The translations under genes were made by a program, and so were the position numbers. Of a stretch of 64,000 bases of DNA, positions 1 to 31,438 are shown piece by piece. Numbering within the stretch: the first letter of the stretch is position 1; each line of letters opens with the position of its first letter. Source of the stretch: an uncultured virus (IMG/VR IMGVR_UViG_3300028603_000035) (Duplodnaviria; Heunggongvirae; Uroviricota; Caudoviricetes; Crassvirales); IMG/VR virus record IMGVR_UViG_3300028603_000035, one strand, 5' to 3'. The notes beneath the pieces are model-generated. The model searched no databases. It saw only the letters and a list, made by a program, of their open reading frames with translations, and was not told the origin of the DNA.

Positions 1-47
1 TTCCCTGGCGTATCTATACCGTGTCCGTTATCCAATATTACTAACAT
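1..47 (-). CDS. N-acetylmuramoyl-L-alanine amidase (Amidase_3) endolysin, 5' end only (runs off window)
   Basis: My translation of the reverse complement from ATG at 47 gives MLVILDNGHGIDTPG(K), the Amidase_3 N-terminal 'ILDxGHG' Zn-binding motif. Not in the ORF track. Confidence 0.85.
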   Translation of the reverse strand, partial: MLVILDNGHGIDTPG

Positions 48-157
48 TATAACCTATTTGCGTTTAATAAACTATTTTCATAGGCTTCTTTTTCTTCCGC
101 TGTTGCTTCTCTGTAATTGTCTTTTGTTGTTGCTATTTCTGTAATTGTTCGTGCCAT
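47..157 (-). CDS. small hypothetical protein (36 aa, MARTITEIATTKDNYREATAEEKEAYENSLLNANRL)
   Basis: ATG lies 1 nt after the tail-fibre stop, and its TAA overlaps the amidase ATG (TAATG coupling). It fills the gap exactly. Confidence 0.6.
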   Translation of the reverse strand: MARTITEIATTKDNYREATAEEKEAYENSLLNANRL

Positions 158-158
158 G

Positions 159-1685
159 TTACCAAGTATTTTGTTTTATTATTATCCATTCATATGTACT
201 CGCTCCTGTCTGCATACACATTTCCACATATGAGTTATTTGCATCAGCCCTGTATCTAATCGCCCCTGCGTTTGCAGCACTCGCGGATGCGGTATCGTTT
301 CCAATTTTTACACTTCCATTTACGTCTAATTTTGCTGCAGGGATAGTGGTGCCAATGCCAACGTTGCCGGCGCTAAATATTGTGTTACCAGAACCGACAG
401 CTTGCGGATTAATAACAAGATTCGTTCCATTATAAGTCAGCGTAGCGTTGTCGTGAGAACCTAAAATAAATTTCTTATTTGTAATTACTGCCAACCCGTT
501 ACCAGTAACAAAAGCTTGGGTCTTACCACCCCTCTGCAAATATATGTGTCCAGACTGAGAATTTAAAATTAATTGATTACCCGGATTAGTGTCAATATAT
601 ATATCGCTATAAGCGCCGGTGGTATTATTTAGTCGTATTCCATTTGTGTCAGAAGTTTGTTTTATGTCCAGCTTTACGATTGGTGCCGCATTCCCAATAC
701 CTACCCTATGATTTACACTGTCAACAAATAAAGTGTTACTGTCAAAATTTTGGTTCCCTGATATAGAATTACCTCCTGATAAATTGGCTTTTGCCCCTAA
801 CAACAAGTCAGCAGCGTTCTTATCATAATAGTCAGTAAGGTTCACCTTCTGTCCCTCTAACTCACTAATGCTATAATACCCCACCTGTAATGAACCTGTA
901 ACAGCTATGTCATCCAAAAACGTGGTGTCATCAACATATACATACGGAACACTACTACTACCAATAGCACTAATCCAATAGTCCGGAACCTCGGTGTCTA
1001 CTACATAGAAGTTCTTACCATAAGGGTAGGCAGTAGGAACAGCAGCATTTAGCAATGTTACTAAAGCAGCTATATCCGTTACTGTCTCTCCGTTGCCTGC
1101 TCCCTTAGCAATAGCATTCACCTCGTTGATAGCCGGCGTCAGCCTCTTATCAATAGTATCTAAAGAAGGTATAACGGTAGATACATCTAACTTAGCATCC
1201 CATGCTGATGTCTTAACATGAGTAACATGTATATCCTCATCACCAATATGACTTTGTATGTTCTCATTGGCAGGCTCAAAGTCTAATATTGGTAGGTCAT
1301 CAAGGCTGTTATAACTCTTCTCCGCTAAATCATTCAACTTATGATTATGACTCCTGTCCGAATACTCATTATCAAAAAAAGTCTTTAATAAAGCCTTGAC
1401 CTTACTAAAAGCTACCTTGATGAAATTACCCCCTCTGTCAGCCAACAACTCATCACTATCGCCAACAACATCCTCACTCGTGATGTCTAACTTCTGTACT
1501 ATGCTCGCCTTGTCCTCATCACCCGTGTTCTCACCCGATACCTTATCCAAAGCAACCCTGTTGCCGTGAGTGTGTGAATTACTATCCTTAGGAACAACAC
1601 AGCTTGCACCATCAATCTTAGCATTGTACAACGTGTTGCTACACATATCTACATCACTGCCTATATCATAACGCTCTTTAGCCAT
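159..1685 (-). CDS. tail fibre / receptor-binding protein
   Basis: 508 aa with trimeric-fibre repeats HRVGIGNAAPIVKLDI and GNVGIGTTIPAAKLDVNG, fibre-type segments HIGDEDIHVT and SYNSLDDLP, and a GAIRYR...CMQTG..W C-terminus. Lies next to the endolysin. Confidence 0.75.
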   Translation of the reverse strand: MAKERYDIGSDVDMCSNTLYNAKIDGASCVVPKDSNSHTHGNRVALDKVSGENTGDEDKASIVQKLDITSEDVVGDSDELLADRGGNFIKVAFSKVKALLKTFFDNEYSDRSHNHKLNDLAEKSYNSLDDLPILDFEPANENIQSHIGDEDIHVTHVKTSAWDAKLDVSTVIPSLDTIDKRLTPAINEVNAIAKGAGNGETVTDIAALVTLLNAAVPTAYPYGKNFYVVDTEVPDYWISAIGSSSVPYVYVDDTTFLDDIAVTGSLQVGYYSISELEGQKVNLTDYYDKNAADLLLGAKANLSGGNSISGNQNFDSNTLFVDSVNHRVGIGNAAPIVKLDIKQTSDTNGIRLNNTTGAYSDIYIDTNPGNQLILNSQSGHIYLQRGGKTQAFVTGNGLAVITNKKFILGSHDNATLTYNGTNLVINPQAVGSGNTIFSAGNVGIGTTIPAAKLDVNGSVKIGNDTASASAANAGAIRYRADANNSYVEMCMQTGASTYEWIIIKQNTW

Positions 1686-1705
1686 ATAACTACCATCTAT
1701 GTAAA

Positions 1706-2035
1706 TTAACCATTACTACTACTATCTCCTAAACCTCGCCGAACACTAACACTAACACTATCACTAACATCAGAAACATCATCCTCCACATCACTACAAC
1801 CGTCCAAACGATGATAAAAACAATCACAAGCAGGATGAACAGACACCTCACTGATACCGTCCTCCACAAATTCTATACCGCTATCATCACCCAAAAGAAT
1901 ATATCTAACACCGCCAAACAAAACCCTAAACAACCTATAAACACAAACAAACATGTCCGACAGACAATCCTCTCGTAAAGCAGTGCCTACACCACCCGAA
2001 AACATACTACCATTATTTCTGTCAAACATATCCAT
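1706..2035 (-). CDS. hypothetical protein (G/V/D/S-biased)
   Basis: 109-aa ORF packed between neighbours; its composition reflects the local strand skew. Confidence 0.4.
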   Translation of the reverse strand: MDMFDRNNGSMFSGGVGTALREDCLSDMFVCVYRLFRVLFGGVRYILLGDDSGIEFVEDGISEVSVHPACDCFYHRLDGCSDVEDDVSDVSDSVSVSVRRGLGDSSSNG

Positions 2036-2041
2036 AACCGC

Positions 2042-2737
2042 CTAATTATCCCTTTCTACCCGGCTTCCACCATCCTGAACACACTCTATATCTCCATCCG
2101 CTCCAACGCCAACAACAGCACCACTACCCGCATTGCAACCAATATCCCCGAAAGAACTTACATCATTATCATCCAAACAAGGCAAATAATCCTCATGCGA
2201 TAACTCCTCTATCAATAAACGAAATTGCTCTATGTCCATAGCACTCATACTGTCAGGAAAACCCCTGTAACTCATAGGATAAATGTCAAACTCCACATAC
2301 TCCGATAACTTCTTATCATATGCCTCCCGCAACTCACCCTCACGCTCCAATATAGAACCATAACGCTTGTCATAATCCTGTCTCGCTAAATTAAGCTGCT
2401 TTAAGCCCTCAGACGATAGCTTGTCCTCCTCGTGATACTTTATACCAAAACGAGAATAAAGCTCGTCTAAACCCCTGTAATAACCCTCTAACGGCTCAAT
2501 AATACTGCTTAACTCCCCAACAACATCCCTGACCAACTCCATATTCTTGTAACAATACATACCAAACCACTTCCCACTATTAAGACGACCCCACTTCAAC
2601 AACCCTAAATGTAATATACGCAACGAAACATAACGTACCTTAACTCTCGCCTTACGTAAACCATCACTAAAATACGAACGTACGTAATTCTCACCCGATA
2701 AACCTACACCACTAACAATAAATTCTCTGTCTAACAT
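2042..2737 (-). CDS. hypothetical protein, first gene of the leftward unit
   Basis: 231-aa ORF with an A-rich leader and a helical central part. Confidence 0.6.
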   Translation of the reverse strand: MLDREFIVSGVGLSGENYVRSYFSDGLRKARVKVRYVSLRILHLGLLKWGRLNSGKWFGMYCYKNMELVRDVVGELSSIIEPLEGYYRGLDELYSRFGIKYHEEDKLSSEGLKQLNLARQDYDKRYGSILEREGELREAYDKKLSEYVEFDIYPMSYRGFPDSMSAMDIEQFRLLIEELSHEDYLPCLDDNDVSSFGDIGCNAGSGAVVGVGADGDIECVQDGGSRVERDN

Positions 2738-2782
2738 AATTATTATATTTTAATCGTTTTTTAATATCTCTATTCCTAAACG

Positions 2783-2810
2783 CAAAATTATATAAAATTA
2801 TTATACAAAA
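2783..2810 (-). promoter_or_regulatory. possible Bacteroidetes sigma70 -7 element (TAATTTTG) for the leftward operon
   Basis: Minus-strand TAATTTTG (2790-2783) matches TAnnTTTG. The upstream TTTG is only 15 nt away, a non-canonical spacing. Confidence 0.35.
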
Positions 2811-3351
2811 ATAAAAAATTATAAATTTTATTAACTTTTTTTTGTTAAACATAAAAAACTAACAAATATAACATACACCCCCCTACGCCTTTCTTCCCCC
2901 CTTATAATCCCCCTATCTATCTATTACCCCCTATATCTACTGTCAGTGATATAGTAACTATATAACTATAACAACTAACAGTAATAATATTTATATAATA
3001 TAATATATAATAATTATAATATAATAATATATAATAACTATAGTAACTAAAAGAAATAATAATACAAATAACAAACTATAATAACTAATACTACTATCAA
3101 AAACTTCACTTAATAAATACAAAATTACTACTATCAAAATATCCCCTATACCCCCCTTACCCCCCTAACCCCCTTTAAAAATAAAAATATACACAAAAAT
3201 ACCCTATACACAATAACAAATACGACAACTATAGAAAACAAATAAATAACTCAAATATATTAAATACGCCCCACACACATAACCCCCCTGATAGCCCCCT
3301 ATGCTTATCTTAATAAATAATCTATTTAATAACTTTAAAAATTAATATCTT

Positions 3352-3840
3352 ATGGAAATGCAAAAAATACAAGAACTTTTTAAACAATTAGAAGACTTAA
3401 AAAAGGAAGAGAAACAAGAGAAGTCAGCAGAGACAACAGAATTGGAAAAAGTAAAGAGGGAGAAAGTGGGTAGTTGTTTGTACGATTTACGCACCGCCTT
3501 TATAAATAAAATCCCTCAAGGCTTGAAAGAGAGAAAATCATTTACATTAAATGTCGTTAAAATCGATGTAAGAAAATCAGATGTAAGCAATTTAATTGAT
3601 TGGCTACTAAAAAACGGGCGAGAAGATAGAGCTAACGAAATAGAAGCAAATAAAGATCGGTTTTTCGATATTTCAATAGTTGCAGATGATGGAAGTACTG
3701 AGCTATTTAATTCTGGGATTTTGTCGTATGACAAAAAAAATTCATTGGAAAAGTTAATAGTTAAATCTGGTAACGGCTTTGATTATTACGTAAATACGAT
3801 GACTTGGGACGCAAGCAATAGAGAGCTGTTTTTTGCTTAA
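3352..3840 (+). CDS. hypothetical early protein, monocistronic
   Basis: 162-aa ORF with an A-rich leader, followed immediately by a strong terminator. Confidence 0.8.
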   Translation: MEMQKIQELFKQLEDLKKEEKQEKSAETTELEKVKREKVGSCLYDLRTAFINKIPQGLKERKSFTLNVVKIDVRKSDVSNLIDWLLKNGREDRANEIEANKDRFFDISIVADDGSTELFNSGILSYDKKNSLEKLIVKSGNGFDYYVNTMTWDASNRELFFA

Positions 3841-3845
3841 AAATC

Positions 3846-3872
3846 AAAGGGACACCTTCGGGTGTTCCTTTT
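3846..3872 (+). terminator. intrinsic terminator
   Basis: AAAGGGACACC-TTCG-GGTGTTCCTTTT: stem with a cUUCGg tetraloop and U tract right after the 3840 stop. Confidence 0.85.
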
Positions 3873-3880
3873 ATTATTAA

Positions 3881-3931
3881 AACTCCTGAACATTAGCCAG
3901 CAGTTCGGGGGTTCGTTCTACGGCTGGCTAA
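3881..3931 (+). ncRNA. candidate H-type pseudoknot RNA
   Basis: S1 3881-3891/3903-3913 is 11 bp with 2 G-U pairs. Loop nt 3893-3901 (TTAGCCAGC) pair perfectly with 3923-3931 (GCTGGCTAA). Confidence 0.55.
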
Positions 3932-3989
3932 ACAGATAAGACGCTTCGCCATTCTATTGGAAGATGGTCAGTGAGAATGATATTGTTTT

Positions 3990-4038
3990 AACATAGAGAG
4001 AAAAAAAAAGAATACAAACACTCTCTATGTTTTTTTTA
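3990..4038 (+). terminator. terminator-like hairpin
   Basis: AACATAGAGAG...CTCTCTATGTT 11-bp inverted repeat followed by a T run. Confidence 0.55.
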
Positions 4039-4148
4039 ACAACACAGACAAATTAGCCACAAGTTGTAATTTTGTTCTTTGAAACATTTCATTCCTGCCA
4101 AAACAAGGAAGAAACATAGGAAAAACAGTAAAAAGGAACATATTCTCG

Positions 4149-4209
4149 TAACTGCTTGATTTCCATTAAATGATTATCAGTGAGTTAAGAGAAACGTAAA
4201 ATATTGATA
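4149..4209. promoter_or_regulatory. three IHF-consensus-like sites
   Basis: WATCAANNNNTTR matches at 4149-4161 (minus, exact), 4175-4187 (plus, 1 mismatch) and 4197-4209 (minus, exact). Confidence 0.5.
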
Positions 4210-4822
4210 ATCAAAGACAGGTCTCCGATTTATCGAGGGTGAGACAAGCCAAATATTTACAAGGGCTTTTTTAACTGTTTTAGCACTCGGTAACACTAGC
4301 CTGCTTTTATGTCTCTATTCCACGTAAAGGAATAATACTTAACAATATAAATATGATAAATCTATATCTATAGTAATATAAGTAATATAGTAGTAACTGG
4401 ATTATATTTTTATTTATAGTTCTATTTGTTTATTATTTATATTTCATTTATGTTTGTTTCTATTTATAAGTACTAGATATATTATGTTTATTTATATTTT
4501 ATTTATATTATTTATTAGATTATTTATTTTAATATTTATTTAGTGTTATTTTATGTCATTAAGATTATTTTAGGTGTTTTGATATTTTTTTTATTTTATT
4601 GTTTGTTTTACGGTTTTATTTTAAGTTTCAGGTACAATAATATAAAAATTAGGAGGTATTGTTTTTTAGTTTTTAGTTTTTGGTTAGTTTTTATATTTGT
4701 TTGGATAATTTATGAATGTAGGGATAAATCATGTATATAGGAATTGGGGTAATGGTTTATTTTTACAGGTTTATTATGGTAGTTATCGTTTAGCATAGTT
4801 TTTATTATAGGGTTTGTAGTGG

Positions 4823-4870
4823 TTTAGGGTTAGGTTTAGGGTTAGGTTTAGGATTAGGATTAGGATTAGG
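4823..4870 (+). repeat. hexamer tandem array (NTTAGG)x8
   Basis: TTTAGG GTTAGG TTTAGG GTTAGG TTTAGG ATTAGG ATTAGG ATTAGG read directly. Confidence 0.9.
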
Positions 4871-4968
4871 TGGGATGATGTTAGGCGGTGATGTGAGTTC
4901 GATTCTCACGATAGGCACTAAAATAGAATAATAATTAAAATAAATATTACCATTTAAAATTTATAAAT

Positions 4969-5133
4969 ATGAAGAATAAAGATTTAAACATAGTAGAATA
5001 TGTAGAAAAAGGAAGTAAAGAGAACAAAACCACTATCTTTGGGATAGATAAGGATAGTTTTTACGGCACAACGGCTGCCATAGTATTCTTTGGTTTCTTT
5101 TTAATTTTACTTTACGGCTTTATTGGAGCTTAA
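4969..5133 (+). CDS. small membrane protein (54 aa)
   Basis: My translation MKNKDLNIVEY...AAIVFFGFFLILLYGFIGA has a C-terminal TM helix and an A-rich leader. Confidence 0.6.
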   Translation: MKNKDLNIVEYVEKGSKENKTTIFGIDKDSFYGTTAAIVFFGFFLILLYGFIGA

Positions 5134-5154
5134 GGTAAATATAATAAAAAAAAA

Positions 5155-5292
5155 ATGCGTAAATATATTTATATAGCCGGTAGGGCTATAGATATAAAGA
5201 AAGCATTGAATATAGCATCGGAGGTGGTGATTGGATTGCTGTCCTTCGCTTGCTTGTTCTTCATATGCTATATGATAGCTTTGATAGCATAG
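5155..5292 (+). CDS. small membrane protein (45 aa)
   Basis: MRKYIYIAG...VVIGLLSFACLFFICYMIALIA: one TM helix, poly-A leader. Confidence 0.55.
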   Translation: MRKYIYIAGRAIDIKKALNIASEVVIGLLSFACLFFICYMIALIA

Positions 5293-5379
5293 CTGTATGT
5301 AGTATATTAAAACAGAAAAAAATAATAGAGAAAAAAAATAATTTTAACTAATATTAACTAAAAAATAAATATAAATAAT

Positions 5380-6114
5380 ATGAAAAATAAAGAGAGGTTA
5401 GACAGCAACCTAAAACTGTCGGAAGGGAATTTCTCAATTTCTCTTATCACGAGTAAAAATGATAGAGAATTAAGTGAGATAAATAAAAAAAACAAACAAA
5501 TTACAGATAAATTGAAAGGATTACAGACTATAGATAATAATCCATTTATTACAAGTAGAGATGTAAATGCTTTAAGGGTGTTTGCAAGCTTCACGGGAAT
5601 GACATTATTCGTCAAAAACAAAACGGAATGTTATTTAAAAGATTCTCAAAACCGTTATTGGTTTGTGGAGAAATCTTTCCAATACAAACCGTTTGTGAGA
5701 CGGACTATCTTTTATCGTTGGATAGAGAAGGTGGTTAAGACAACGAGAGAAGGTGGTAAAAAGGTAGAAAAAGAAGTAGAGAACACCGATTTAATACCTA
5801 TCAATAAAGGAGAGCAATTGTCGTACAACAATAAAGTGCGTAAGCACTATTATAAGTACGGCAATAAGACGTTATTTTTATCCACTGAGCAATTAATAAA
5901 GAACAATAATTGTTCTATATATGCGTTGGTGGTAAAAGACGTTAATGGTAAGGCTATTAATGTCAGCCATTTTTTATGGGAGTTGGCTGAATACGAAAGC
6001 CTCATCCAAAGACATACCATTCTTAAAGGTAAGGATTTGCTTTTAGGGAAAGTGGAGAGCATAGGCAGATATTTTGATGTTGTAATAAACAACATTCAAA
6101 GGTTGGTAGGGTAG
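5380..6114 (+). CDS. hypothetical basic early protein
   Basis: 244-aa ORF followed by a terminator. Confidence 0.8.
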   Translation: MKNKERLDSNLKLSEGNFSISLITSKNDRELSEINKKNKQITDKLKGLQTIDNNPFITSRDVNALRVFASFTGMTLFVKNKTECYLKDSQNRYWFVEKSFQYKPFVRRTIFYRWIEKVVKTTREGGKKVEKEVENTDLIPINKGEQLSYNNKVRKHYYKYGNKTLFLSTEQLIKNNNCSIYALVVKDVNGKAINVSHFLWELAEYESLIQRHTILKGKDLLLGKVESIGRYFDVVINNIQRLVG

Positions 6115-6134
6115 AAAAAAAAACAATATATAAT

Positions 6135-6171
6135 AGAGTGGTGGATATACAACGGCATTCACCGCTCTTTT
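6135..6171 (+). terminator. intrinsic terminator
   Basis: AGAGTGGTGGAT...ATTCACCGCTCT stem followed by T residues. Confidence 0.6.
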
Positions 6172-6300
6172 AACAACAATTAAAAAATAAAAAATAATGG
6201 AAGACATGATAAAAGCCCCAAAAGGGTATGAATTTAAGCAAGTTGATAAAAAAAACAGAGAGAAGGTAAGAATAATGAAACTAAATTAAATACACAAAAT

Positions 6301-6741
6301 ATGAAAAAGTTAAATATTATTATTATGTTTATTTTGTCCTTGTGCTTCACAGCACAGGGGCAAAAGCAGTATGCCTATGAAAAATATAATTTTGATTGGG
6401 AGTTTAATTATAGAGACGGATATTTCACTGATGCCGGCTTTACTATTTATAGTGTTGTTTATAATATAGGTATAAAAGTATATGGAGAAAAATTATATAT
6501 TATATTTGACGTCGATAGTGCAAATAAAGATATTTTGTGGAAGTACTATATAGATGAGGTAGATATAATAAGAGGGGAAAAATATGACAAATATAGATTT
6601 TTCTGTCTTGATATAAAAAACTATAGTTATATGGTTGTTGATTTTTATTTCAAAAAAAAGACAATAGAGATTTGTTTTTATTTTGTCGATGAAGAAGTAT
6701 TCTTTTTATTAGCAGATCCAAGAAAAGTAACAATAAATTAA
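6301..6741 (+). CDS. secreted/periplasmic protein with signal peptide
   Basis: MKKLNIIIMFILSLCFTAQG-Q is a typical Bacteroidetes SPI signal peptide ending before Gln; the mature part is beta-rich. Confidence 0.7.
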   Translation: MKKLNIIIMFILSLCFTAQGQKQYAYEKYNFDWEFNYRDGYFTDAGFTIYSVVYNIGIKVYGEKLYIIFDVDSANKDILWKYYIDEVDIIRGEKYDKYRFFCLDIKNYSYMVVDFYFKKKTIEICFYFVDEEVFFLLADPRKVTIN

Positions 6742-6755
6742 AAAACAATAACATT

Positions 6756-7178
6756 ATGATAAAAGCCCCAAAAAGCCAATATTTAAAAGTGGCAAGAGAA
6801 TTAAAAAAGAAAATATTAAACACTCCCGGAGAATATAAAGCATATTTGAATAAAAGAGTGGTTTCAGCTAAACAAGTGTATTATACGTTATTTATTTTTG
6901 ACTCTTCCGGAAAGTTTTATTTCTTAGTAGGAGACCTCGACTCAGAGGTGGGTAATTTATTTGATTGGAGAGAAGAATTTGTAGGTCTAGACAATCTCTT
7001 AATCCATTTTACGGGAACTATAAGTACATTATCTAAAGTGAAAGTAGATATTGCCATGTTAGCTTCTTGGATAGAAGCATATTATATATTAGAAGCATAT
7101 TCTTTAAATGACAAGAGCGGATATTATAGTTCTTTACAAAAGCAAATAAAATATGATTTTATAAATTTCTTAATATGA
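6756..7178 (+). CDS. hypothetical protein
   Basis: 140-aa ORF in the operon. Confidence 0.7.
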   Translation: MIKAPKSQYLKVARELKKKILNTPGEYKAYLNKRVVSAKQVYYTLFIFDSSGKFYFLVGDLDSEVGNLFDWREEFVGLDNLLIHFTGTISTLSKVKVDIAMLASWIEAYYILEAYSLNDKSGYYSSLQKQIKYDFINFLI

Positions 7179-7207
7179 TTTTATAAGTTTCTTAAAAAAA
7201 GACAACA

Positions 7208-7723
7208 ATGAGAGATAGAAATTTAATAATAATACTTGTTTTTTATCTGTTAGCTATTTTAGCTTCGATAGCATTTATTTTAAAGATAGACCCTTATACG
7301 GAGAATAAGCGAGAGAATAAGCGAGAGAATAAGCGAGAAAAGAAGGAGGTAAGGGTAGATACTGTCTATTACACTCCGTCGGATATGGAGTTAGTGCTGT
7401 TTGCTCTTATATGGCAAGAGAGTAAAGGCAATACCACTGCTATCTATAAAGAGGCAAGAGGGGTATTACAGATTACGCCTATATATATCCGAGAGGTGAA
7501 TAATCGTTTTAAAAGCGATTTTAAGCCTTCTGATGCATTTTCTTTTCAAAAGAGTGTTCTTATATGGAAAATGTTTCAAGATGCCCACAACCCTTCAAAA
7601 CACCCTAAAAAAGCTATCTTACTTCATAATCCAAAAGCAAGAGATAGATATTTTAATGAGGTGTGGGATAAATATAGGATGTTAAAATATTACACAGAAA
7701 ATATAGAAAAGGTAAAACTATGA
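7208..7723 (+). CDS. membrane-anchored lytic transglycosylase / lysozyme-like protein (paralogue 1)
   Basis: N-terminal TM helix; ALIWQESKG...ARGVLQITPIY matches the catalytic Glu 'ES' and 'GxxQ' motifs of the SLT/lysozyme-like fold. Confidence 0.75.
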   Translation: MRDRNLIIILVFYLLAILASIAFILKIDPYTENKRENKRENKREKKEVRVDTVYYTPSDMELVLFALIWQESKGNTTAIYKEARGVLQITPIYIREVNNRFKSDFKPSDAFSFQKSVLIWKMFQDAHNPSKHPKKAILLHNPKARDRYFNEVWDKYRMLKYYTENIEKVKL

Positions 7724-7869
7724 ATATAATCGTAGATATAATAGAGATACTATCGGTGATGGTGGGAGTTTCTGCCCTCCTTGCTATCATCGTTCTCTAT
7801 TTGATATTAGGGGTAGGAAAGAAAAGTGAAGATAAACTAAATAATATTTATAAAAACAAAATTCATTAA
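7720..7869 (+). CDS. small membrane protein (49 aa)
   Basis: ATGA overlap with the previous stop; ILSVMVGVSALLAIIVLYLILGV TM helix followed by a basic tail. Confidence 0.55.
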   Translation: MNIIVDIIEILSVMVGVSALLAIIVLYLILGVGKKSEDKLNNIYKNKIH

Positions 7870-7871
7870 AT

Positions 7872-8996
7872 ATGAGTAAAGTAATACAAGTACAAGAACG
7901 TCAAGATGCCCTTCTGAAAGCATCTGACCTCCCGGAAGTGAAAAAAGCAGAACTAATGCTGAAAATGCAGTCTTATACGGACACCATAAAACAAATGAAA
8001 CAACAAGCTGACGCATTAGTAATAACAGATAGTTCTCAAACAGACCTTATCAATGCTGCTAAAGACGGAGCAAGACATATTGCTAAAGTGAGAATAGCTA
8101 TAAATAAAGTACGTAAAAACCTCGGAGGAGATTACTACAAACAATATAAACTTATCAATTCTATAGCGAATATTCTATTAGACGAACTAAATCCTATAGA
8201 AGAAGATTTAAAGCTAAAAAGTAAATTTGTAGAAATAGAGAAAGAGAAAAAAGAAAAAGCTCTATCGGAAGAAAGATTATTGCTTTTAGAGCCGTATAAG
8301 GACTTTATTCCTAAAGAAGCTAATTATGGTTCGATAAGCGAAGAAGAGTTCCAGAACGTGCTTAAAACGGCTAAATTAGCCTATGACCAAGCACAGAAGA
8401 TAGAAAGAGATAAGATATTAGACCTGATAAATACAAGAGCGGAAAAATTAAAAGATATGGGCTTTGAATATAACAAGCAATATCATTCTTATTCTTACTT
8501 CCATGAAGGGAATATGGAGTTGGACATATCCATAGACCTTATTATTTCTAAATGTACAGATGAAGAATGGGAGCTTGTATTAAAAGAACAAGCTCAAAAA
8601 TTATTAGCCATTACACAAAAATATCAGGTATATAAAGATGAACAGGCTAAAAGAGAAAAAGAAGTAGAAGAACATCTCAAAAAAAGAGAAGAAGAATTAA
8701 TCAATCAAAAAATAAAAGAAATAGGATTGATAAAAGATGCTCTCAGAAAAGAGATGAAAAAAAATATTCCTACCTCTACACCTATAGTCAAAGACGAAGC
8801 TAATATAGAAAGAGATGATATGCTTCCTGTGGCTAAAACAGAAAAAGATGAACATTATGCTATGCGTTATATACAGGAATATCTTTCAAATATGAAGTTT
8901 CCCGATGTTCGTAAAGGATATAAATACGAAAAAGAATATAAAGGAATACAGAAACGAATAAGCGATATATTAAAGTATTTAAAAACTATTTTATGA
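7872..8996 (+). CDS. coiled-coil phage protein
   Basis: 374 aa, K/E-rich and helical throughout. Confidence 0.75.
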   Translation: MSKVIQVQERQDALLKASDLPEVKKAELMLKMQSYTDTIKQMKQQADALVITDSSQTDLINAAKDGARHIAKVRIAINKVRKNLGGDYYKQYKLINSIANILLDELNPIEEDLKLKSKFVEIEKEKKEKALSEERLLLLEPYKDFIPKEANYGSISEEEFQNVLKTAKLAYDQAQKIERDKILDLINTRAEKLKDMGFEYNKQYHSYSYFHEGNMELDISIDLIISKCTDEEWELVLKEQAQKLLAITQKYQVYKDEQAKREKEVEEHLKKREEELINQKIKEIGLIKDALRKEMKKNIPTSTPIVKDEANIERDDMLPVAKTEKDEHYAMRYIQEYLSNMKFPDVRKGYKYEKEYKGIQKRISDILKYLKTIL

Positions 8997-9015
8997 GAAA
9001 TATTAAGTTTTAAAA

Positions 9016-9382
9016 GTGAAAAATAAAATGGGAGAATTTAGAAAAAAAACAGTGGTAATCGAAGCATTGGAATTGGATGAAACCAAAACCACGTTTGAAA
9101 AAATAGATTACAGCAAATATGAATGTCCTTATTCTCATTTAGAAAAAGAATGTGGACATGAATTGCATAGCCCAGAAGGCTACCAAGATATATACAGCGT
9201 ATGGTGTCAATGTGGATTTCGTGCACCAGTATTTTACTTAGACCCTGTTGTTTTAGGGTTAAAGCTAAAAGGTAGAACTGATGATAGCAAATAGGTTTGT
9301 CAAAAATGTGGCGAACTTGTTGACGGGTAGAAATGTAACATTTGAAGAATATCACGAAGGTTGTGGCGGTCGCTGTGTATAA
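9016..9382 (+). pseudogene. chimeric/degraded Zn-finger ORF
   Basis: FRKKTVVIEA start and Cys-rich middle. After the TAG at 9292 the frame continues VCQKCGELVDG, and a shifted frame continues RNVTFEEYHEGCGGRCV*. Confidence 0.5.
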
Positions 9383-9390
9383 TTACGCAC

Positions 9391-9450
9391 AACATCGGAA
9401 TAAACGAAATAAATAATTAACTTAATTAAAAAATTAAATAAATAATCAAT
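9391..9450 (+). repeat. 60-bp direct repeat, copy 1
   Basis: 58/60 identical to 10402-10461. Confidence 0.9.
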
Positions 9451-9463
9451 AAAAAAAATAAAG

Positions 9464-9940
9464 ATGAAAACCCTTAATAGAATTTCACTTTGTTTATGTG
9501 TTGCTTTAATAATTTACATTTTCTTTTCAGAAATTCAATCCATTAAAACTGAAATTCAATCCATTAAAACTGAAAAACAATTTGTTCCATTAACCGACTT
9601 TGAGCTTATCGAACTTGCAATTATATGGCAGGAATCGAAAGCAAATCCAAATCCGAAATACTCTGACGGGAAAAGTGAAGGTATATTACAAATAACTCCT
9701 ATTTACGTAAAAGAAGCAAATCGAATCTTAGGAAAGAACAAATATACCCTCTATGACCGCAGAAACCCGCTAAAATCGCACGAAATGTTCCTTGTGGTAC
9801 AGAATTACCACAATCCAGAAAAAGACGTGGAAAAAGCCGTTAAATTGCATAATAAGGGCAAGCGGTATTTTGAGGAGGTTATGGATAGGTACAATTGTTT
9901 GAAATTACATCAAGAAATATTAAAATTTAAAAACAGGTAA
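9464..9940 (+). CDS. membrane-anchored lytic transglycosylase / lysozyme-like protein (paralogue 2)
   Basis: TM helix; AIIWQESKA...SEGILQITPIYVKEAN...HNP...A.KLHN aligns with 7208-7723. Confidence 0.75.
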   Translation: MKTLNRISLCLCVALIIYIFFSEIQSIKTEIQSIKTEKQFVPLTDFELIELAIIWQESKANPNPKYSDGKSEGILQITPIYVKEANRILGKNKYTLYDRRNPLKSHEMFLVVQNYHNPEKDVEKAVKLHNKGKRYFEEVMDRYNCLKLHQEILKFKNR

Positions 9941-9943
9941 GAT

Positions 9944-10201
9944 ATGAAAGATCAACTGACAATAATAAGCGATGACCTAAATTACGACATCATAACTGAA
10001 GAAGAAGCACGAACCAAGTTATTGATTTTATTGGGTGTTAGAGATTCGTTGCCTATTAAAAGATACGATATTGATTTCGGAGGTAATGTAATGGCAGGAA
10101 TAGAGATAAAAGGACAATCACTAAAGGTATTCGGAGCTATGAATGGGTATGGTGATGGAATTGACGACGAAAGAATAAAAATAACTGAACGTAGGCAATG
10201 A
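9944..10201 (+). CDS. hypothetical protein
   Basis: 85-aa ORF starting 3 nt after the previous stop. Confidence 0.6.
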   Translation: MKDQLTIISDDLNYDIITEEEARTKLLILLGVRDSLPIKRYDIDFGGNVMAGIEIKGQSLKVFGAMNGYGDGIDDERIKITERRQ

Positions 10202-10401
10202 CCGCTAATAGCAGATTAGAAAGCAATGACTATCGGATTAACTTAAATATTAATTAGAAGCAATAGTGTTAAAACCAAGCACCATAACCGCTATTGCTGT
10301 TATACATTGTTATGGTGCGGTAAACCGATTGATAGTAGATATACTCCATGTTGCAGTTTGAAATGTTGGGATAAAAAATTTCTCTAAGCAAACTGTTTTA
10401 T

Positions 10402-10461
10402 AACATCGGAATAAACGCAATAAATAATTAACTTAATTAAAAAATTAAATAAATAAGCAAT
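10402..10461 (+). repeat. 60-bp direct repeat, copy 2
   Basis: 58/60 identical to 9391-9450; runs into the HNH start codon. Confidence 0.9.
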
Positions 10462-10807
10462 GAAAAAAGAAATAAGAATAAAAGTATATGAAAAATACGA
10501 CGGACATTGTGCGTATTGTGGAAAAGAGATAGCATATGAAGATATGCAAGTAGACCACCAACAGCCTAAAAGGCACGGCGGAAAAGACACCATTGATAAT
10601 CTTTTTCCTGCTTGTAGAAGATGTAATCATTATAAACGAGATATGAATTTAGAAACTTTTAGAATATATATAACAACTTTGCACGAAAGAGTGTCTACGC
10701 CTTATATTAACAAAGTAGCAATAGATTATGGTATACTGAAAGTAATACCATTTTTGGGAACGTTTTACTTTGAAAAAATTGATAAAAACATTCAGCAACG
10801 AAAATGA
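10460..10807 (+). CDS. HNH endonuclease
   Basis: CAYCG...QVDHQQPKRHGGKDTIDNLFPACRRCNHYK is a canonical HNH motif with Zn ligands. Confidence 0.92.
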   Translation: MKKEIRIKVYEKYDGHCAYCGKEIAYEDMQVDHQQPKRHGGKDTIDNLFPACRRCNHYKRDMNLETFRIYITTLHERVSTPYINKVAIDYGILKVIPFLGTFYFEKIDKNIQQRK

Positions 10808-10898
10808 TTTGGTAGTAGATTTAACAATGGGAAGCGGAAGTACAGGAGTTGCTTGTAAAAAACTAAATCGTAAATTTATTGTAAAACAAAATAAGTGA
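10779..10898 (+). pseudogene. C-terminal relic of a beta-class N6/N4 DNA methyltransferase
   Basis: My translation LIKTFSNENDLVVDLTMGSGSTGVACKKLNRKFI matches the SAM-binding motif I region; no catalytic DPPY part upstream. Confidence 0.75.
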
Positions 10899-10902
10899 AA
10901 TT

Positions 10903-11238
10903 ATGGGATATAAATGGAAACCTAACAAATCGCAAAGAAGGGCTTTTGCAATAGCAATGCAAGACTCAGACTTCGCCGCTTCTTATTATGAAGCTAAAGC
11001 AGAAAAAGCAGCTAAACGCCGTGCCACTTCAAAATTTAATTATGAAAGTGCAGGTGGGTATTATGTTCCCACGAAAGAGCAACACGACGCTGCATTTAAA
11101 TGCTTCGACGAATTAAAACTCACTCCTCAACAAGAGGAAGCGTGTAATAGAGTGATAAGCGGATATAGTCTTAATGAAAAAATACATCACGACAATATAC
11201 ATATCGTAAACGAATTAAAACGTGAACATAACTTTTAA
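10903..11238 (+). CDS. hypothetical phage protein
   Basis: 111-aa ORF with normal composition. Confidence 0.75.
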   Translation: MGYKWKPNKSQRRAFAIAMQDSDFAASYYEAKAEKAAKRRATSKFNYESAGGYYVPTKEQHDAAFKCFDELKLTPQQEEACNRVISGYSLNEKIHHDNIHIVNELKREHNF

Positions 11239-11249
11239 ATAATCTAATC

Positions 11250-11492
11250 ATGATTTATGTATTAACAGAATATAATGAAAAAGGGTCAGGATATGTTGCT
11301 TTGGTAACTACAGATAAGAAAGAAGCAATGAGCGAAAGACTATGTACATTAACAATAAAACAAGCATTGAAAAAGTACGGATTTAATTATTTTTACACAG
11401 GCTTTAGTGTAAAATCATCCGTAATAGCAAGCTATCCTTCTAAAAAAGCAATGAATGAAGGACGGTTTAAAACAAGAAATGAATGGTATTAA
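11250..11492 (+). CDS. hypothetical protein
   Basis: 80-aa ORF in the operon. Confidence 0.6.
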   Translation: MIYVLTEYNEKGSGYVALVTTDKKEAMSERLCTLTIKQALKKYGFNYFYTGFSVKSSVIASYPSKKAMNEGRFKTRNEWY

Positions 11493-12034
11493 TATTAAAA
11501 AAAACAAGTAAAAATTATATTATTATGGATGAATACGATAAACAAGCACAAGAGTTTTTAGATAAAACAAAAACAGAGATAACAATAGAATATAAAGAAA
11601 ACAACTATTACTTTAAAGATGATAGAAGTCCAAGAGATATTTACGATGTTACCCTTAAAAGAGGAAGTAGAGAATATAAATTTACATATGGAAATAGTCT
11701 TATACATAGCAAGCATTATGTTTCTCTTATAGACGAAAATGAATGGTTCACACTATCAGGATTTAACCTAAAAGGAAGACTTAAATGTACCAATGAAAAT
11801 TATTTAGAGGATTATTGTAAATTAATAGAAGGGAAACCTCCAAAACCGTATGCCATATTAGCTTGTTTAGAAAAACACCCTTACGGTTCATTTGAAGACT
11901 TCTGTTGTAATTATGGTTATAGTAACGATAGTATATCAGCAAAAGAAATATATGATAAAGTAAAGATTGAATATATGAGCTTAGCTACGCTATATAGTGA
12001 AGAAGAAATAGAGATGCTTAGAGAGATACAATAA
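11483..12034 (+). CDS. hypothetical phage protein (true start probably ATG 11525)
   Basis: MDEYDKQAQEFL...YAILACLEK..GSFEDFC.NYGY.NDS, a recurring phage hypothetical pattern. Confidence 0.7.
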   Translation: MVLILKKTSKNYIIMDEYDKQAQEFLDKTKTEITIEYKENNYYFKDDRSPRDIYDVTLKRGSREYKFTYGNSLIHSKHYVSLIDENEWFTLSGFNLKGRLKCTNENYLEDYCKLIEGKPPKPYAILACLEKHPYGSFEDFCCNYGYSNDSISAKEIYDKVKIEYMSLATLYSEEEIEMLREIQ

Positions 12035-12083
12035 AGAAGAATAGAGTACGTTAATAACTAACAACTGAAAATCTAAAAAAAAA

Positions 12084-12767
12084 ATGAGTATAGACGTAAA
12101 ACAAGAACTAATCGATTTAATAGCTGATATGGCAGTAGCTATAGAAGCAAGTAAAATAGAAGATGCCGAGTCTTTAGTGCAACGTGCCGACATCGCCTTG
12201 GAAACGCTAAAACAAGACTTGGATTATTATGATATAGTACAGTTTCATCCGGATGACCTACAACAAACATCTCTTAACAATATAACACTATTACGTTATA
12301 ACACTCCGGAAGTAATGGATAACATAGCGGAAAAACTATCTGAAATGATGCGTAGCGATGTATACTTCGATTCATTAGAAGTAGCAGCAAATTGTATTTA
12401 CGGTAAAGCTATGCGAGAACCGTTACCAAGAAATATGATAGCCGACAATTGGAAAGACTTCTATCGTATTATAATGAAAATGTACGATGAACAAATCACT
12501 GTAAGCATACAAGAAGAATGTGTTTTCAATGTATTAAAAAAGACGGTAGTAGAAATCGATAACGGTCGTGTAGTAGATGTTGTTATTTACAATAAAGAAT
12601 GTTTTAAAAGTTGGAAACGGTTAGATGACAATTATGCTGATGATTTAAAGATTAGCATACAAAATAAAATCAATGAAGACATCTACAATAAAAGTGAAGA
12701 AAAAGAATTAGACGACTTAGATGTCTTAGCAGATAGAAAAAACGATAATAATAAAGATTTAAAATAA
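12084..12767 (+). CDS. acidic hypothetical protein
   Basis: 227-aa ORF with a poly-A leader. Confidence 0.75.
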   Translation: MSIDVKQELIDLIADMAVAIEASKIEDAESLVQRADIALETLKQDLDYYDIVQFHPDDLQQTSLNNITLLRYNTPEVMDNIAEKLSEMMRSDVYFDSLEVAANCIYGKAMREPLPRNMIADNWKDFYRIIMKMYDEQITVSIQEECVFNVLKKTVVEIDNGRVVDVVIYNKECFKSWKRLDDNYADDLKISIQNKINEDIYNKSEEKELDDLDVLADRKNDNNKDLK

Positions 12768-12774
12768 AAATATT

Positions 12775-13374
12775 ATGGCTCAAGAAAAGAGAACAGGGAA
12801 GTTAATAGACTTCAAAGAAAAACTAAAAAATGGCGTACAAGACACGTGGGAACGTAAGGACTCCAAGACAGGACTAACACAAAAGTTTTTTATCTTCAAC
12901 GTTGCTTTCGACAATGGGGATACAGGAGAGGCTATGGCAACAAAAGGTATTCCTAATTGGACTGTAGGAGAAACTTATAATTACGTGTTGGAAAGCCGAG
13001 AATACAACGGCAAAACGTTTTATTCTGTCAGAGGAATGAACAGCACGTCTTTTAAGAAAGGTGCTGCCTACACCGCTAAAACAGCCAAAGAATGGCGTAG
13101 TCACGCTATGCAAGTAGCAATACGATGTACAGCACTATTGTACCAAAACAATAAAACATTATCTTTAAAGAAAGAACACGCCAACGCTATCACTACTAAA
13201 AATTATGATTGGATTATAAAAACAGTGGGCGATGACGACACCCTTTATTGGAGAGCTTTCAGTGTTTTGGAAAGTGCTATCTTATTTTATACGTCTTCAC
13301 ACTATGAAGAACTATATAAGATAGAACAAATCTTTAATTTGGCAACAGATAGTTTTATAAAATGCACGCTCTAA
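12775..13374 (+). CDS. putative single-stranded DNA-binding (OB-fold) protein
   Basis: Beta-rich N-terminal domain (TWERKD..FFIFNVAFDNGDTGEA..NWTVGETYNY) directly before the exonuclease and helicase; function inferred. Confidence 0.45.
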   Translation: MAQEKRTGKLIDFKEKLKNGVQDTWERKDSKTGLTQKFFIFNVAFDNGDTGEAMATKGIPNWTVGETYNYVLESREYNGKTFYSVRGMNSTSFKKGAAYTAKTAKEWRSHAMQVAIRCTALLYQNNKTLSLKKEHANAITTKNYDWIIKTVGDDDTLYWRAFSVLESAILFYTSSHYEELYKIEQIFNLATDSFIKCTL

Positions 13375-14306
13375 AAAGTATAAACAAAAAAGATTATCCT
13401 TTCAAAAGTATCAACCAAACACTCATAACTAATATAGTTAGCAATAGAGAAAATATAGACGACGGTTTTTTTATGTATAAAGAATATTGCCCGCAAAGAA
13501 TATTCTATAGAGACATCGCTAAATTGGTGGATGAAGTCCCTACGGAATCTCAATATAAAGGATTGTATTTTGAAAGTCTATTATTAGATAAGGAAGCTAA
13601 GACTATCCCTCTTACCAAGACAGGCAAAGTGCCTATAGACTATGAGAGGATACAAAAGCAAGCCACCAATGCTCAATTAATATTCTTAAAAAATGGCATC
13701 TCTGTAAGTAGAGGTATCAACACACAAGTGCCGTTATCATTCTATCAAAAAGAATTAGATATTGTCGTAAAAGGAAAATTAGACTTATTCCCCGCTCAGG
13801 TGTTTCTCGACGGAGAACTAAAAAAATGTATTGTCGATATTAAACTAACAGGCAATATAGACGATACATTTAGTCCTTATTCATGGGGAGACCCTACTAA
13901 AAGAGATAACATACAAGGGGATATGTATATGTGGCTTGTCAGAAACGTATTTCAAAATAATCTGTTCAAGGAGGTAAAAGAAAGAAATAAAGATTATAAC
14001 TATTTCTTTGTTTTCAATGATGATAATATAAGAGAAATTGTTGAAAAAGGAATATTATTCTTTTATTTTGTGTTCGGATATAAAGAAAGCGAAGAAAAAC
14101 CTTTGATGGAAAACGTTAAGATAATAGAGAGAGTAAGAACAGAACATAAAGAATATCAGATGTTGGGACGAATGGCGCAGGCTATAGAAGCCTTACGCAT
14201 AGACGAAGATAACGGTTGGAAGGCTAAGCCATCACAGATAGCGTGCGACAAATGCCCGCTAAAGAATATAGTATGTAATGAATATTTAGAAACTTTTAAA
14301 TGTTAG
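13362..14306 (+). CDS. Cas4/RecB-like PD-(D/E)XK exonuclease
   Basis: CPQR; KGKLDL...IVDIKLT; Q..MY; C-terminal CDKCPLKNIVC Fe-S-type cysteines. Confidence 0.8.
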   Translation: MHALKSINKKDYPFKSINQTLITNIVSNRENIDDGFFMYKEYCPQRIFYRDIAKLVDEVPTESQYKGLYFESLLLDKEAKTIPLTKTGKVPIDYERIQKQATNAQLIFLKNGISVSRGINTQVPLSFYQKELDIVVKGKLDLFPAQVFLDGELKKCIVDIKLTGNIDDTFSPYSWGDPTKRDNIQGDMYMWLVRNVFQNNLFKEVKERNKDYNYFFVFNDDNIREIVEKGILFFYFVFGYKESEEKPLMENVKIIERVRTEHKEYQMLGRMAQAIEALRIDEDNGWKAKPSQIACDKCPLKNIVCNEYLETFKC

Positions 14307-14310
14307 AAAT

Positions 14311-14538
14311 ATGAAAGAATTAAATTTAAAAGTAAAAGTAAAATACCATATTGAAGGGAACATCCCCGAAAGTATTAAAGAAGATGCCGTTATTACGGCT
14401 TTATTTAACGGTACACGCAACATCTCAGCTCAGGAATATGTATGTACTTTATCGAATATAGAGTTGCTTAAACAGCCTGTAAACGAATTGGATTTTGAAG
14501 TGAAAATAGAAGAAATAAAAACAACAAGAGATGAATGA
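14311..14538 (+). CDS. hypothetical protein
   Basis: 75-aa ORF, tightly packed. Confidence 0.6.
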   Translation: MKELNLKVKVKYHIEGNIPESIKEDAVITALFNGTRNISAQEYVCTLSNIELLKQPVNELDFEVKIEEIKTTRDE

Positions 14539-14803
14539 TTATTTCACAGATATTCATATATCTAAAACGTTTTACAATAACATCATAGCAGGATATAAAT
14601 TGTTCTCTTCCAAAGATAACGATAACATATTTGATAGTGCTACTATTATGGATAACGTAGAATCTAATATATGTGTAATACAAAACTCAGTTTCGGGTTG
14701 TTGTATCTTTATTCACTTAATTGCTTGCAACCCTTTAAAATACACAAAAACATATTTTAATATAGAAGATTTTATCAAGGAATGGAAAGACCGAACGATA
14801 TAG
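14531..14803 (+). CDS. hypothetical protein
   Basis: 90-aa ORF overlapping both neighbours. Confidence 0.55.
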   Translation: MNDYFTDIHISKTFYNNIIAGYKLFSSKDNDNIFDSATIMDNVESNICVIQNSVSGCCIFIHLIACNPLKYTKTYFNIEDFIKEWKDRTI

Positions 14804-17224: not shown

Positions 17225-17283
17225 TTAAAAGATTTGAAGCACATATAAGCCAAATGACATTATCACTCTAAACAAAATAAAAT

Positions 17284-17592: not shown

Positions 17593-17612
17593 TTTATGTT
17601 TTATTAATATGA

Positions 17613-31434: not shown

Positions 31435-31438
31435 AATA

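Follow-up and report, generated by a model that had tools for sequence, protein, structure and literature searches.

The stretch of DNA analyzed here, 64,000 nucleotides (nt) of the IMG/VR record IMGVR_UViG_3300028603_000035, hereafter the window, makes up most of the genome of an uncultured tailed phage, crAss-like in architecture. Its open reading frames (ORFs) are arranged in two opposed gene blocks. The plus-strand block (3352-18809) encodes a DnaB-like helicase, a RusA-like resolvase domain and an HNH endonuclease, the minus-strand block (18926-64000) giant ORFs of 3374, 4237 and 2170 amino acids (aa) and the major head protein. Positions 1 and 64000 of the window are joined, via 8,801 extra bases, by an IMG/VR contig (L002:234-9034); the map is therefore circular or terminally redundant, and has a length of 72,801 nt, 88% of which is covered by the window. 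The circular map was deduced from the IMG/VR contig pieces L002 and L006. With the map closed, the long leftward block therefore opens with the minus-strand genes at 2737-159, and there is one divergence point (~3.3 kb) and one convergence point (~18.9 kb) per genome. At the divergence point reside two tracts of extreme strand asymmetry, called here the left and the right tract, which are mirror images of each other (Table 1).

An earlier note on this DNA had described the plus strand as very poor in G between ~1700 and 3340, and nearly devoid of C between ~4380 and 4890, and the counts bear out both statements. At 1701-3300 of the plus strand, 109 of 1600 residues are G (6.8%; 0-14 per 100 nt) and 454 are C (28.4%), the averages for the window being 16.7% and 21.5%, respectively. 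At 4401-4900 the residues which are C number 14 out of 500 (2.8%), those which are G 96. The longest G-free run of the window is found at 3054-3223 (170 nt), its three longest C-free runs at 4636-4729, 4795-4885 and 4474-4556. Measured in segments of 300 nt, the extremes of the GC skew are -0.82 (at 3001) and +0.80 (at 4601). Outside the tracts, the mean skew is -0.18 in the late minus-strand block (standard deviation [sd] 0.10, minimum -0.46) and +0.13 in the plus-strand block (sd 0.13, maximum +0.51), and the skews of the two tracts exceed those of the rest of the window by five to six standard deviations. The feature is real and statistically extreme, and the notion that it is stronger than ordinary skew is confirmed, as it falls far outside the distribution of 300-nt segments in this genome. 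An inflection had been expected between 3.3 and 4.4 kb, and the cumulative G-C curve does have its minimum at ~3.3 kb. The right tract begins ~1 kb off the centre, at ~4380, separated from it by a gene whose composition is normal and by a non-coding, structured stretch, and its outer edge is abrupt (4885/4886).

The two ORFs of the left tract, 1706-2035 and 2042-2737, feature coding-strand GC skews of 0.62 and 0.54, found at all three codon positions, and are the only ones out of 36 with a negative AT skew. In the other 34 ORFs the GC skew ranges from -0.03 to +0.40, and the AT skew is at least 0.01. Composition is mirrored in the proteins, which are pushed towards Gly, Val, Asp and Ser, as the earlier note had it (11.2, 8.8, 10.3 and 10.6%, vs. 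6.3, 6.4, 7.5 and 6.6% in late proteins), and Thr is reduced to 0.3%, vs. 5.9% in late genes. Thr, Pro, Ala, His and Gln, the codons of which need C, jointly account for 7.8% of the 231-aa protein, vs. 19.4% of late proteins, and for 7.9-10% of its four homologues, 81-96% identical to it.

The asymmetry of the two tracts also differs in kind from that found in the rest of the genome. In bulk, coding strands are purine-rich (A+G excess of +0.13 to +0.19), with a G+T excess near zero (0.01 in late genes, -0.09 in early genes, sd 0.07 in both). In the tracts, the strand which reads outward 5' to 3', minus on the left and plus on the right, is instead enriched in G+T (excess of +0.31 to +0.45), its purine excess being small, and in the tracts only are the GC and AT skews of opposite sign. 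The tracts therefore do not just exhibit the usual gene-strand skew in stronger form. Synonymous sites tell the same. In the genes at 1706-2737, 18 of 93 two-fold pyrimidine codons end in C (0.19, vs. 0.42 in late genes), and 38 of 42 two-fold purine codons in G (0.90, vs. 0.55 in late and 0.23 in early genes). The four-fold sites of these genes (n=83) are T.65, C.06, G.16 and A.13, those of late genes T.40, C.18, G.19 and A.23. Deamination of C and A on single-stranded DNA is described as leading to C-to-T along with A-to-G changes, and as the accepted cause of the G+T-rich mitochondrial H (heavy) strand (PMC3269012); C-to-T and A-to-G shifts on the outward strand are what the synonymous sites of 1706-2737 exhibit.

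On the left side, the G+T and synonymous signal forms a plateau, which extends from 3340 (in genes, from 2737) to ~1450, and then decays down to 159. Within the tail-fibre-like gene, A at four-fold sites increases from 5/48 near the centre to 20/65 at the far end, and the share of G in purine-ending codons drops outward from 0.71 to 0.38. On the other side, the GC skew of the plus-strand block, computed per kb, falls from 0.33 to ~0 between 4 and 19 kb. The earlier claim that the skew is strongest next to the centre thus stands for the GC skew on the left; it does not stand for the G+T excess, flat down to ~1450, nor for the right tract, located ~1 kb away. Over the whole 72.8-kb map, skew extremes are found at 3.3 and 19 kb, delimiting arcs of 15.5 and 57.3 kb. 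Cumulative skew had been proposed as a check: the minimum is in the expected place, but the genome-wide course follows gene orientation and not two replichores. Both strands of the tracts are unusually free of self-structure (z of +1.2 to +4.8 vs. the GC-matched expectation, and above +2.8 except in the intergenic part of the left tract).

The region is not an assembly artefact, since it is found in an independent colinear contig and in 20 sequencing runs. L003, a JGI metagenome contig, is colinear with the window from ~790 to 9020 with ~98% identity, save for indels and one diverged gene, and two more contigs span parts of the region. The 20 public runs come from 14 studies (landfill, wastewater and bioreactor samples), and 19 of them hold at least half of the sampled words of the stretch. 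The assembly junction which the earlier note had named as a possibility can be discarded. Strain divergence in the left tract is 0.7-1.8%: only 7 mismatches with L003 were counted at 1706-2737, and 11 in 603 nt at 2738-3351. A polarized substitution spectrum, also proposed earlier as a check, is limited by too few sites: a comparison of the window with L003, L004 and L005 gives 89 variable positions, which mostly fall in a recombinant patch of the tail-fibre gene, the distal part of which varies between strains, and no clear bias is seen. Length varies too. L003 is devoid of a 77-nt, hairpin-containing piece of the structured stretch (3904-3980 in the window), and of 205, 14 and 30 nt of the right tract (249 nt in all), which is still C-poor. 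Length-variable spots of the right tract correspond to 4506-4710 and 4830-4859 of the window, and five hexamer units are missing in L003. In a further strain, L004 (L004:1-953), a TnpB element of the IS605 family is inserted at 2820/2821, inside the divergent intergenic region. The TnpB gene (Pfam OrfB_IS605, 1.6e-27; Cas12f1-like TNB domain, 4.5e-27) is split over two frames, and is oriented as the C-poor strand, in the direction of the 231-aa gene. Elements of the IS605 family insert into single-stranded DNA; being a single event, the insertion is therefore weak support for single-strandedness of the region.

Viral contigs scanned with four neighbouring proteins, one by one, returned nothing; the tail-fibre protein identified two loci (L001 and L002), both outside the region. 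Neither a 32-mer of the right edge nor a 23-mer of the G-tracts was found in an exact-pattern scan of viral contigs.

Table 1. Features at the divergence point of the phage, and the giant ORF discussed in the text. Positions are those of the window.
Feature	Position	Strand	Remarks
Tail-fibre-like gene, 508 aa	159-1685	minus	3' of the skewed genes; PHROG tail fibre families, E 1e-5 to 1e-7
109-aa ORF	1706-2035	minus	Coding strand C 7.6%, G 32%, T 40%
Hexamer array, 4.7 copies	1742-1769	minus	Marks the outer edge of the left tract; outward strand is TTAG-type; tandem repeat finder
231-aa ORF	2042-2737	minus	Heads the leftward block; C 9.5%, G 32% on the coding strand
Divergent intergenic region (614 nt)	2738-3351		Outward strand is minus: A.32, C.03, G.21, T.45
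G-run cluster, four runs	2878-2935	minus	C6, C6, C5, C5 on the plus strand
AT-rich repeat stretch	2940-3140		Candidate unwinding element; nearly G-free on the plus strand
Canonical G-quadruplex motif	3143-3173	minus	G-tracts of 5, 6, 6, 4; loops of 3-4 nt
Third G-run cluster	3268-3300	minus	Adjoins the skew flip point
162-aa gene	3352-3840	plus	Ordinary purine-skewed composition; sits between the tracts; own terminator hairpin
Structured non-coding stretch	3841-4345	plus	Terminator hairpin at 3846-3871, and more hairpins
Right C-free tract, non-coding	4380-4890	plus	A.26, C.03, G.19, T.52; length varies among strains
TTAGG-type hexamer array, 8.5 copies	4821-4871	plus	Outer edge of the right tract; copy number varies
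Hairpin resembling T-arm and 3' acceptor strand of a transfer RNA	4893-4918	plus	The C-free run stops just 5' of the hairpin
54-aa ORF	4969-5133	plus	First ORF of the rightward block past the C-free tract
3374-aa ORF	21310-31434	minus	Minus-strand block; DFDID at residue 978, motif match only

The left tract is made up by the divergent intergenic region and the two skewed genes. Three minus-strand G-run clusters, parted by very AT-rich repeats, are found at 2738-3351, and 9 of the 17 runs of five or more C residues in the whole window fall at 2878-3299. The motif at 3143-3173 is the sole canonical G-quadruplex motif in the 64 kb (regular-expression scan of both strands), and is unchanged in L003. 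The 231-aa protein has no match in PHROG, Pfam or the Protein Data Bank (PDB), nor a usable one in Atlas, and its AlphaFold2 (AF2) model has a predicted local distance difference test (pLDDT) score of 53. The N-termini of the 109-aa and 231-aa ORFs are paralogous. In the metagenomic homologue P0004 an N-terminus of the 109-aa type is fused to the body of the 231-aa protein, an arrangement which suggests recombination between the paralogues. The hexamer arrays at the outer edges of the two tracts match each other as imperfect inverted sequences (71%). Similarity between the left and right non-coding arms (score of 67, vs. 51.8 in shuffles, sd 6.8, maximum 70) is not above the composition-matched expectation.

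The 162-aa gene which separates the tracts is 19.6% divergent from its counterpart in L003, while its flanks diverge by 0.7-2.4%; the proportion of synonymous differences (pS) is 0.52 and the ratio of nonsynonymous to synonymous differences (pN/pS) 0.27. Judged from this pattern, the gene is a swapped allele cassette. The protein has homologues in 82 clusters (64-96% identity), all on short contigs, and no match in PDB or Atlas; located next to the control region, it may serve as a locus of specificity or regulation. The adjacent structured stretch has a fold z of -4.8 as RNA, and of -2.6 as DNA. No Rfam family was detected at 1-9000 of the window at E values up to 1. An ORF at 4543-4740, within the right tract, was ruled out as a gene, being entirely missing from L003. 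ARAGORN found no transfer RNA (tRNA) at 4893-4918, and a 25-mer of the tRNA-like hairpin has no exact match in genome contigs. By analogy, the hairpin may be a tRNA remnant, because a tRNA array is located at the equivalent place in crAss001.

Membership of the phage in Crassvirales is tentative, with features that speak for it and others that do not. Two opposed gene blocks with inverted skew, as known from Crassvirales, are present. The motif DFDxD is given for crAss-like virion RNA polymerases (RNAPs) (10.1101/2020.03.07.982082), and the giant 3374-aa ORF, which has no Pfam hit, resembles these proteins by the match to this motif alone. The capsid protein matches PHROG family phrog_11589, annotated as major head protein (E 1.4e-11), and has just 59 representative clusters among 1.8 billion proteins. 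A tblastn search with the same protein against 50,697 phage records gave no match at 1e-5, and a DNA search of phage records none either. Away from the divergence point, a near-identical element of ~55 nt was noticed at ~9400-9463 and ~10400-10459, 5' of the ORFs starting at 9464 and 10460, the latter being the HNH endonuclease. This element may act as a promoter, or may mark one end of a mobile cassette. The gap between two giant ORFs, 31435-31682, hosts an unlisted minus-strand ORF of ~75 aa, and a 68-nt G-free run on the plus strand.

An alignment of capsid proteins (5 sequences) led to 44 related IMG/VR loci, 10 of which were fetched, the five longest and five others including the closest one (71% capsid identity). 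A homologue of the 231-aa protein is missing in all 10 records, and no 300-nt segment with an absolute GC skew above 0.61 was found in any of them. The divergence point lies inside the record in G002, G004 and G005, and at the record ends in G003; the other six records are uninformative there. In G004 and G003 the genome-wide maximum (0.60-0.61) is located at the head of a gene block and is one-sided; that of G004, which was checked, is of the purine type. Around the divergence point of crAss001, 300-nt segments feature an absolute GC skew of at most 0.52 and a G+T excess of at most 0.18, and the tRNA array occupies the place where the phage analyzed here has its non-coding stretch. Since the 10 related records and crAss001 are devoid of the feature, its extreme form is confined to the lineage of this phage. 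A mild local rise of skew at block heads may be more general.

The feature is best described as a local, mitochondrial-type strand asymmetry at a phage control region. G+T richness would be the footprint of a strand which is recurrently single-stranded, the outward-reading strand (5' to 3' from the control region) being pushed to G+T by C-to-T and A-to-G changes. The explanation we favour, with something short of even confidence, is that the tracts correspond to outward initiation zones, in which the non-template strand is held open by transcription, R-loops or G-quadruplexes, perhaps priming replication. Two such outward-facing zones would head the two opposed gene blocks, and initiation outward from the divergent control region would displace the non-template strand for long periods. 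The displaced state could be reached by R-loops formed behind G-rich, C-poor transcripts, by G-quadruplexes arising from the clusters of G-runs on the displaced strand, or by a virion RNAP which transcribes an opened, single-stranded template, as in crAss-like phages; primers for DNA replication could come from this open structure as well. A transcription-linked zone is favoured because skew over the whole genome goes with gene orientation rather than with replichores, because the synonymous signal decays outward from the heads of both gene blocks, and because the G-run clusters sit on the would-be non-template strand. A G-tract cluster on this strand is what priming by R-loops or G-quadruplexes, of the mitochondrial or ColE1 kind, calls for, and the one at 3143-3173 is accompanied by two more. 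It is also favoured because, in the only crAss-like phage with a biochemical study, the injected polymerase uses single-stranded DNA, and abundant non-coding RNAs are made at the head of the early block. The crAss-like virion RNAP gp66 is reported to transcribe single-stranded, and not double-stranded, DNA, and the long intergenic regions with which the early block of phi14:2 begins are reported to be highly transcribed non-coding RNAs (10.1101/2020.03.07.982082); a non-coding stretch of 1.1 kb is found at the analogous place in the window. The lack of structure in the strands of the tracts is what a single-stranded template, or a displaced strand, would need. According to this explanation, the G-run clusters and the hexamer arrays are probably selected elements, and the bulk of the skew, including the distorted make-up of the 231-aa and 109-aa proteins, is probably mutational. 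In its fullest version, the region would be a mitochondrion-like control region, in which a zone held open by G-quadruplexes, a virion RNAP preferring single-stranded DNA, C-free outward transcripts, and R-loops priming replication combine, and spontaneous deamination has rewritten ~2 kb of DNA, down to the amino-acid composition of two proteins; this version seems improbable.

Several observations weigh against the favoured explanation. Promoter searches were negative: sigma-70-like sites (18 vs. 20.1 in shuffles) and the Bacteroidota-type composite promoter motif (4 vs. 2.1) are not enriched, TAnnTTTG motifs are found at chance level (57 vs. 66.8), and none of the 20 runs holding the region is on record as RNA. 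Promoter, transcript and R-loop have to be regarded as candidates. The gene nearest to the centre on the right (3352-3840) is unskewed, and the right tract therefore needs a start of its own near 4380; its abrupt edge at 4885/4886 looks more like the edge of a module than like a mutational gradient. On the left, the G+T excess runs as a plateau with no peak at the centre. G at four-fold sites is not increased (0.16 vs. 0.19), the A-to-G shift being confined to two-fold codons and amino-acid usage, and strain polymorphisms show no directional bias, although the variable sites at 1706-2737 are few (~25). The feature is missing in the 10 related records and in crAss001, and is therefore not a conserved requirement of the clade.

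Polarity on its own does not discriminate among the explanations. The earlier note had proposed that the outward strand is single-stranded and deaminated at an origin, a strand-displacement site or a genome-entry end; the direction of the synonymous changes agrees with this, but a cause is not singled out, because transcription from the divergence point has the same polarity. All the candidates with the right polarity, i.e. outward transcription, bidirectional replication and the 3' tails of a terminal repeat, leave the outward strand single-stranded. Strand displacement from ends at 1728 and 4871 gives the opposite polarity, and a self-replicating linear element delimited by these ends was rejected for this reason. 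A replication origin proper, with bidirectional forks and the outward lagging-strand template exposed longest near the origin, by a long-lived displacement loop (D-loop) or slow helicase loading, seems rather unlikely to us. In this case replication would have caused the skew, and transcription would not. The polarity fits, the skew switches at the cumulative G-C minimum (~3.3 kb), and the AT-rich element at 2940-3140, with the 170-nt G-free stretch flanked by G-run clusters, has the traits of an unwinding element. A motif of the ATAGGG type occurs five times on one strand in 400 nt (19 minus-strand copies in the window), and the origin of prototypic crAssphage has been predicted at the point of strand divergence (PMC10983915). 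Yet the second skew extreme, at 19 kb, coincides with the convergence of gene strands and is not found opposite to the first (~40 kb), where the late block is unchanged, and skew across whole replichores, with a second switch unrelated to gene orientation, is not seen. DnaA boxes are at chance level (23 vs. 18.5 expected) and none are clustered, no initiator gene was recognized alongside in family and fold scans of neighbouring proteins, and the unskewed 1-kb centre is left unaccounted for. That centre (3352-4340) is expected if the virion genome is linear and the region from ~1.7 to 4.9 kb represents its long direct terminal repeat (collapsed on assembly into a circle), the 3'-ended strands of which become single-stranded and deaminated by end resection, or by incomplete lagging-strand synthesis before concatemers are formed. 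Such strands would be minus on the left and plus on the right, as is seen; the right edge at 4885/4886 is sharp, imperfect inverted arrays of TTAG-type hexamers mark both outer edges (1742-1769 and 4821-4871), and the G+T excess is highest in the outermost segments (0.47 at 1701, 0.44-0.45 at 4401-4601). Packaging with direct terminal repeats is described for crAss001, but the repeat is of 576 bp only (PMC6235969). The synonymous skew extends well past 1700 and fades outward through the tail-fibre gene, whereas a terminus would produce the reverse, a cut-off; the inverted arrays are just 71% complementary, and the non-coding arms are alike no more than composition predicts. We consider a terminal repeat of this size unlikely.

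Composition might itself be the target of selection, if a C-free RNA or a G-free template is wanted, so as to prevent folding, to cope with scarcity of cytidine triphosphate or its deoxy form (CTP/dCTP), to escape C-dependent nucleases, or to reduce, by C depletion of one strand, G/C palindromes in DNA which has to withstand restriction before counter-defence is in place. In the tracts both strands are markedly unstructured, the edges of the right tract are sharp, composition is kept while length varies (L003, devoid of 249 nt, is still C-poor), the G residues sit in runs and arrays and are not scattered, and 4-mer palindromes containing G/C are found at 8 per kb in the tracts, vs. 14-18 per kb elsewhere. 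In contrast, 6-mer palindromes show no such depletion (4.9 and 2.0 per kb, vs. 4.5-4.7), and restriction avoidance as the driver is weakly supported for this reason. Synonymous sites, non-coding DNA and amino-acid usage have all changed in the same direction, and the change fades gradually through the neighbouring gene; the uniform direction across site classes and the gradual fade suggest mutation pressure. The feature is moreover missing in relatives of the same lifestyle, and we give selection for composition little credit. Mutation could be enzymatic, a host or phage deaminase hypermutating, the way APOBEC enzymes act on retroviruses, the strand of DNA or RNA which is first exposed early in infection. 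The size of the depletion is comparable to that of hypermutated viral genomes, and one phage lineage only is affected; editing would, on the other hand, need two different deaminations, of C and of A, no deaminase gene is found among the ORFs scanned, and strains differ little in sequence (by 0.7-1.8% in the left tract), which makes this route very improbable. No more credible is the acquisition of the tracts as a foreign cassette, from a replicon of other strand composition which has been retained. The neighbourhood is mosaic, as shown by the swapped 162-aa allele and by the strain-variable distal part of the tail-fibre gene, and the 231-aa gene is without homologue in the 10 related records. 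But two tracts of opposite polarity, each facing outward, would have needed the correct orientation on arrival, the resident tail-fibre gene next door has the synonymous-site skew too, and no donor was found by the DNA search of phage records, nor by viral-contig and homologue searches; it is hard to believe in such an origin.

The feature can be set against known systems. As in the vertebrate mitochondrial H strand, the outward strand is G+T-rich and C-poor via C-to-T and A-to-G changes, and codon and amino-acid usage are reshaped, as described in a study of mitochondrial genomes (PMC3269012). A cluster of G-tracts on the non-template strand of a non-coding control region has been reported for the mitochondrial CSB II (conserved sequence block II) (PMC3488243, PMC4176368), and is found in the phage as well. 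Unlike in mitochondria, the asymmetry of the phage is local (~2.3 kb plus 0.5 kb of 72.8 kb of double-stranded DNA) and mirrored, and not genome-wide on one strand, and mitochondrial strand-displacement replication and primer formation may be taken as an analogy only. Immunoglobulin switch regions are a parallel case of GC-skewed, R-loop-forming DNA. At R-loop-forming CpG-island promoters, an excess of G over C on the non-template strand is reported downstream of divergent starts, and decays over 1-2 kb (PMC3787257), much as in the phage. Unlike those promoters the phage DNA is AT-rich, and G accounts for 19-32% only, so that the usual G-density criteria for R-loop zones are not reached. Two opposed gene blocks with inverted GC skew are described for crAss001, prototypic crAssphage and phi14:2 (PMC6235969) and are shared by the phage; unlike the latter, crAss001 has ordinary skew only at its divergence point.

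For an injected polymerase to carry out early transcription, the template has to be opened locally, and in this the control region would resemble the early promoters of phage N4. In N4, single-stranded hairpins serve as early promoters for the virion RNAP, with the help of the host single-stranded DNA-binding protein (SSB). The N4 promoters are short hairpins, unlike the kilobase-scale asymmetry found here, and the polymerase families differ. In phages of the T7 and T5 types, terminal repeats are flanked by short repeat arrays; the feature shares with them a discrete block bounded by short tandem arrays and, as in T5, small early genes. We know of no comparable skew in the terminal repeats of these phages. 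Unlike them, the block of the phage analyzed here is known from sequence alone, and a terminus at this place is a conjecture. No account of a kilobase-scale, mirror-image G+T skew in a phage was found in the literature searched.

The candidate causes are three mechanisms, a transcription-linked zone, an origin and a terminal repeat. Strand asymmetry resulting from single-strandedness is a familiar trait of whole genomes, both bacterial and mitochondrial. In this phage, the asymmetry is local and mirror-image, of mitochondrial strength, inside an ordinary-looking genome of double-stranded DNA, and strong enough to strip Thr, Pro, Ala, His and Gln from two proteins. If the region is a long terminal repeat, its composition would represent a new sequence signature of phage genome ends. 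If the mitochondrion-like interpretation holds, kilobase-scale G+T skew would be a marker by which such zones may be recognized, from sequence, in uncultured phages. Start sites are otherwise very hard to learn from metagenomes, and if the region is a persistently open initiation zone, sequence by itself would mark the place where early transcription or replication starts in an uncultured phage.

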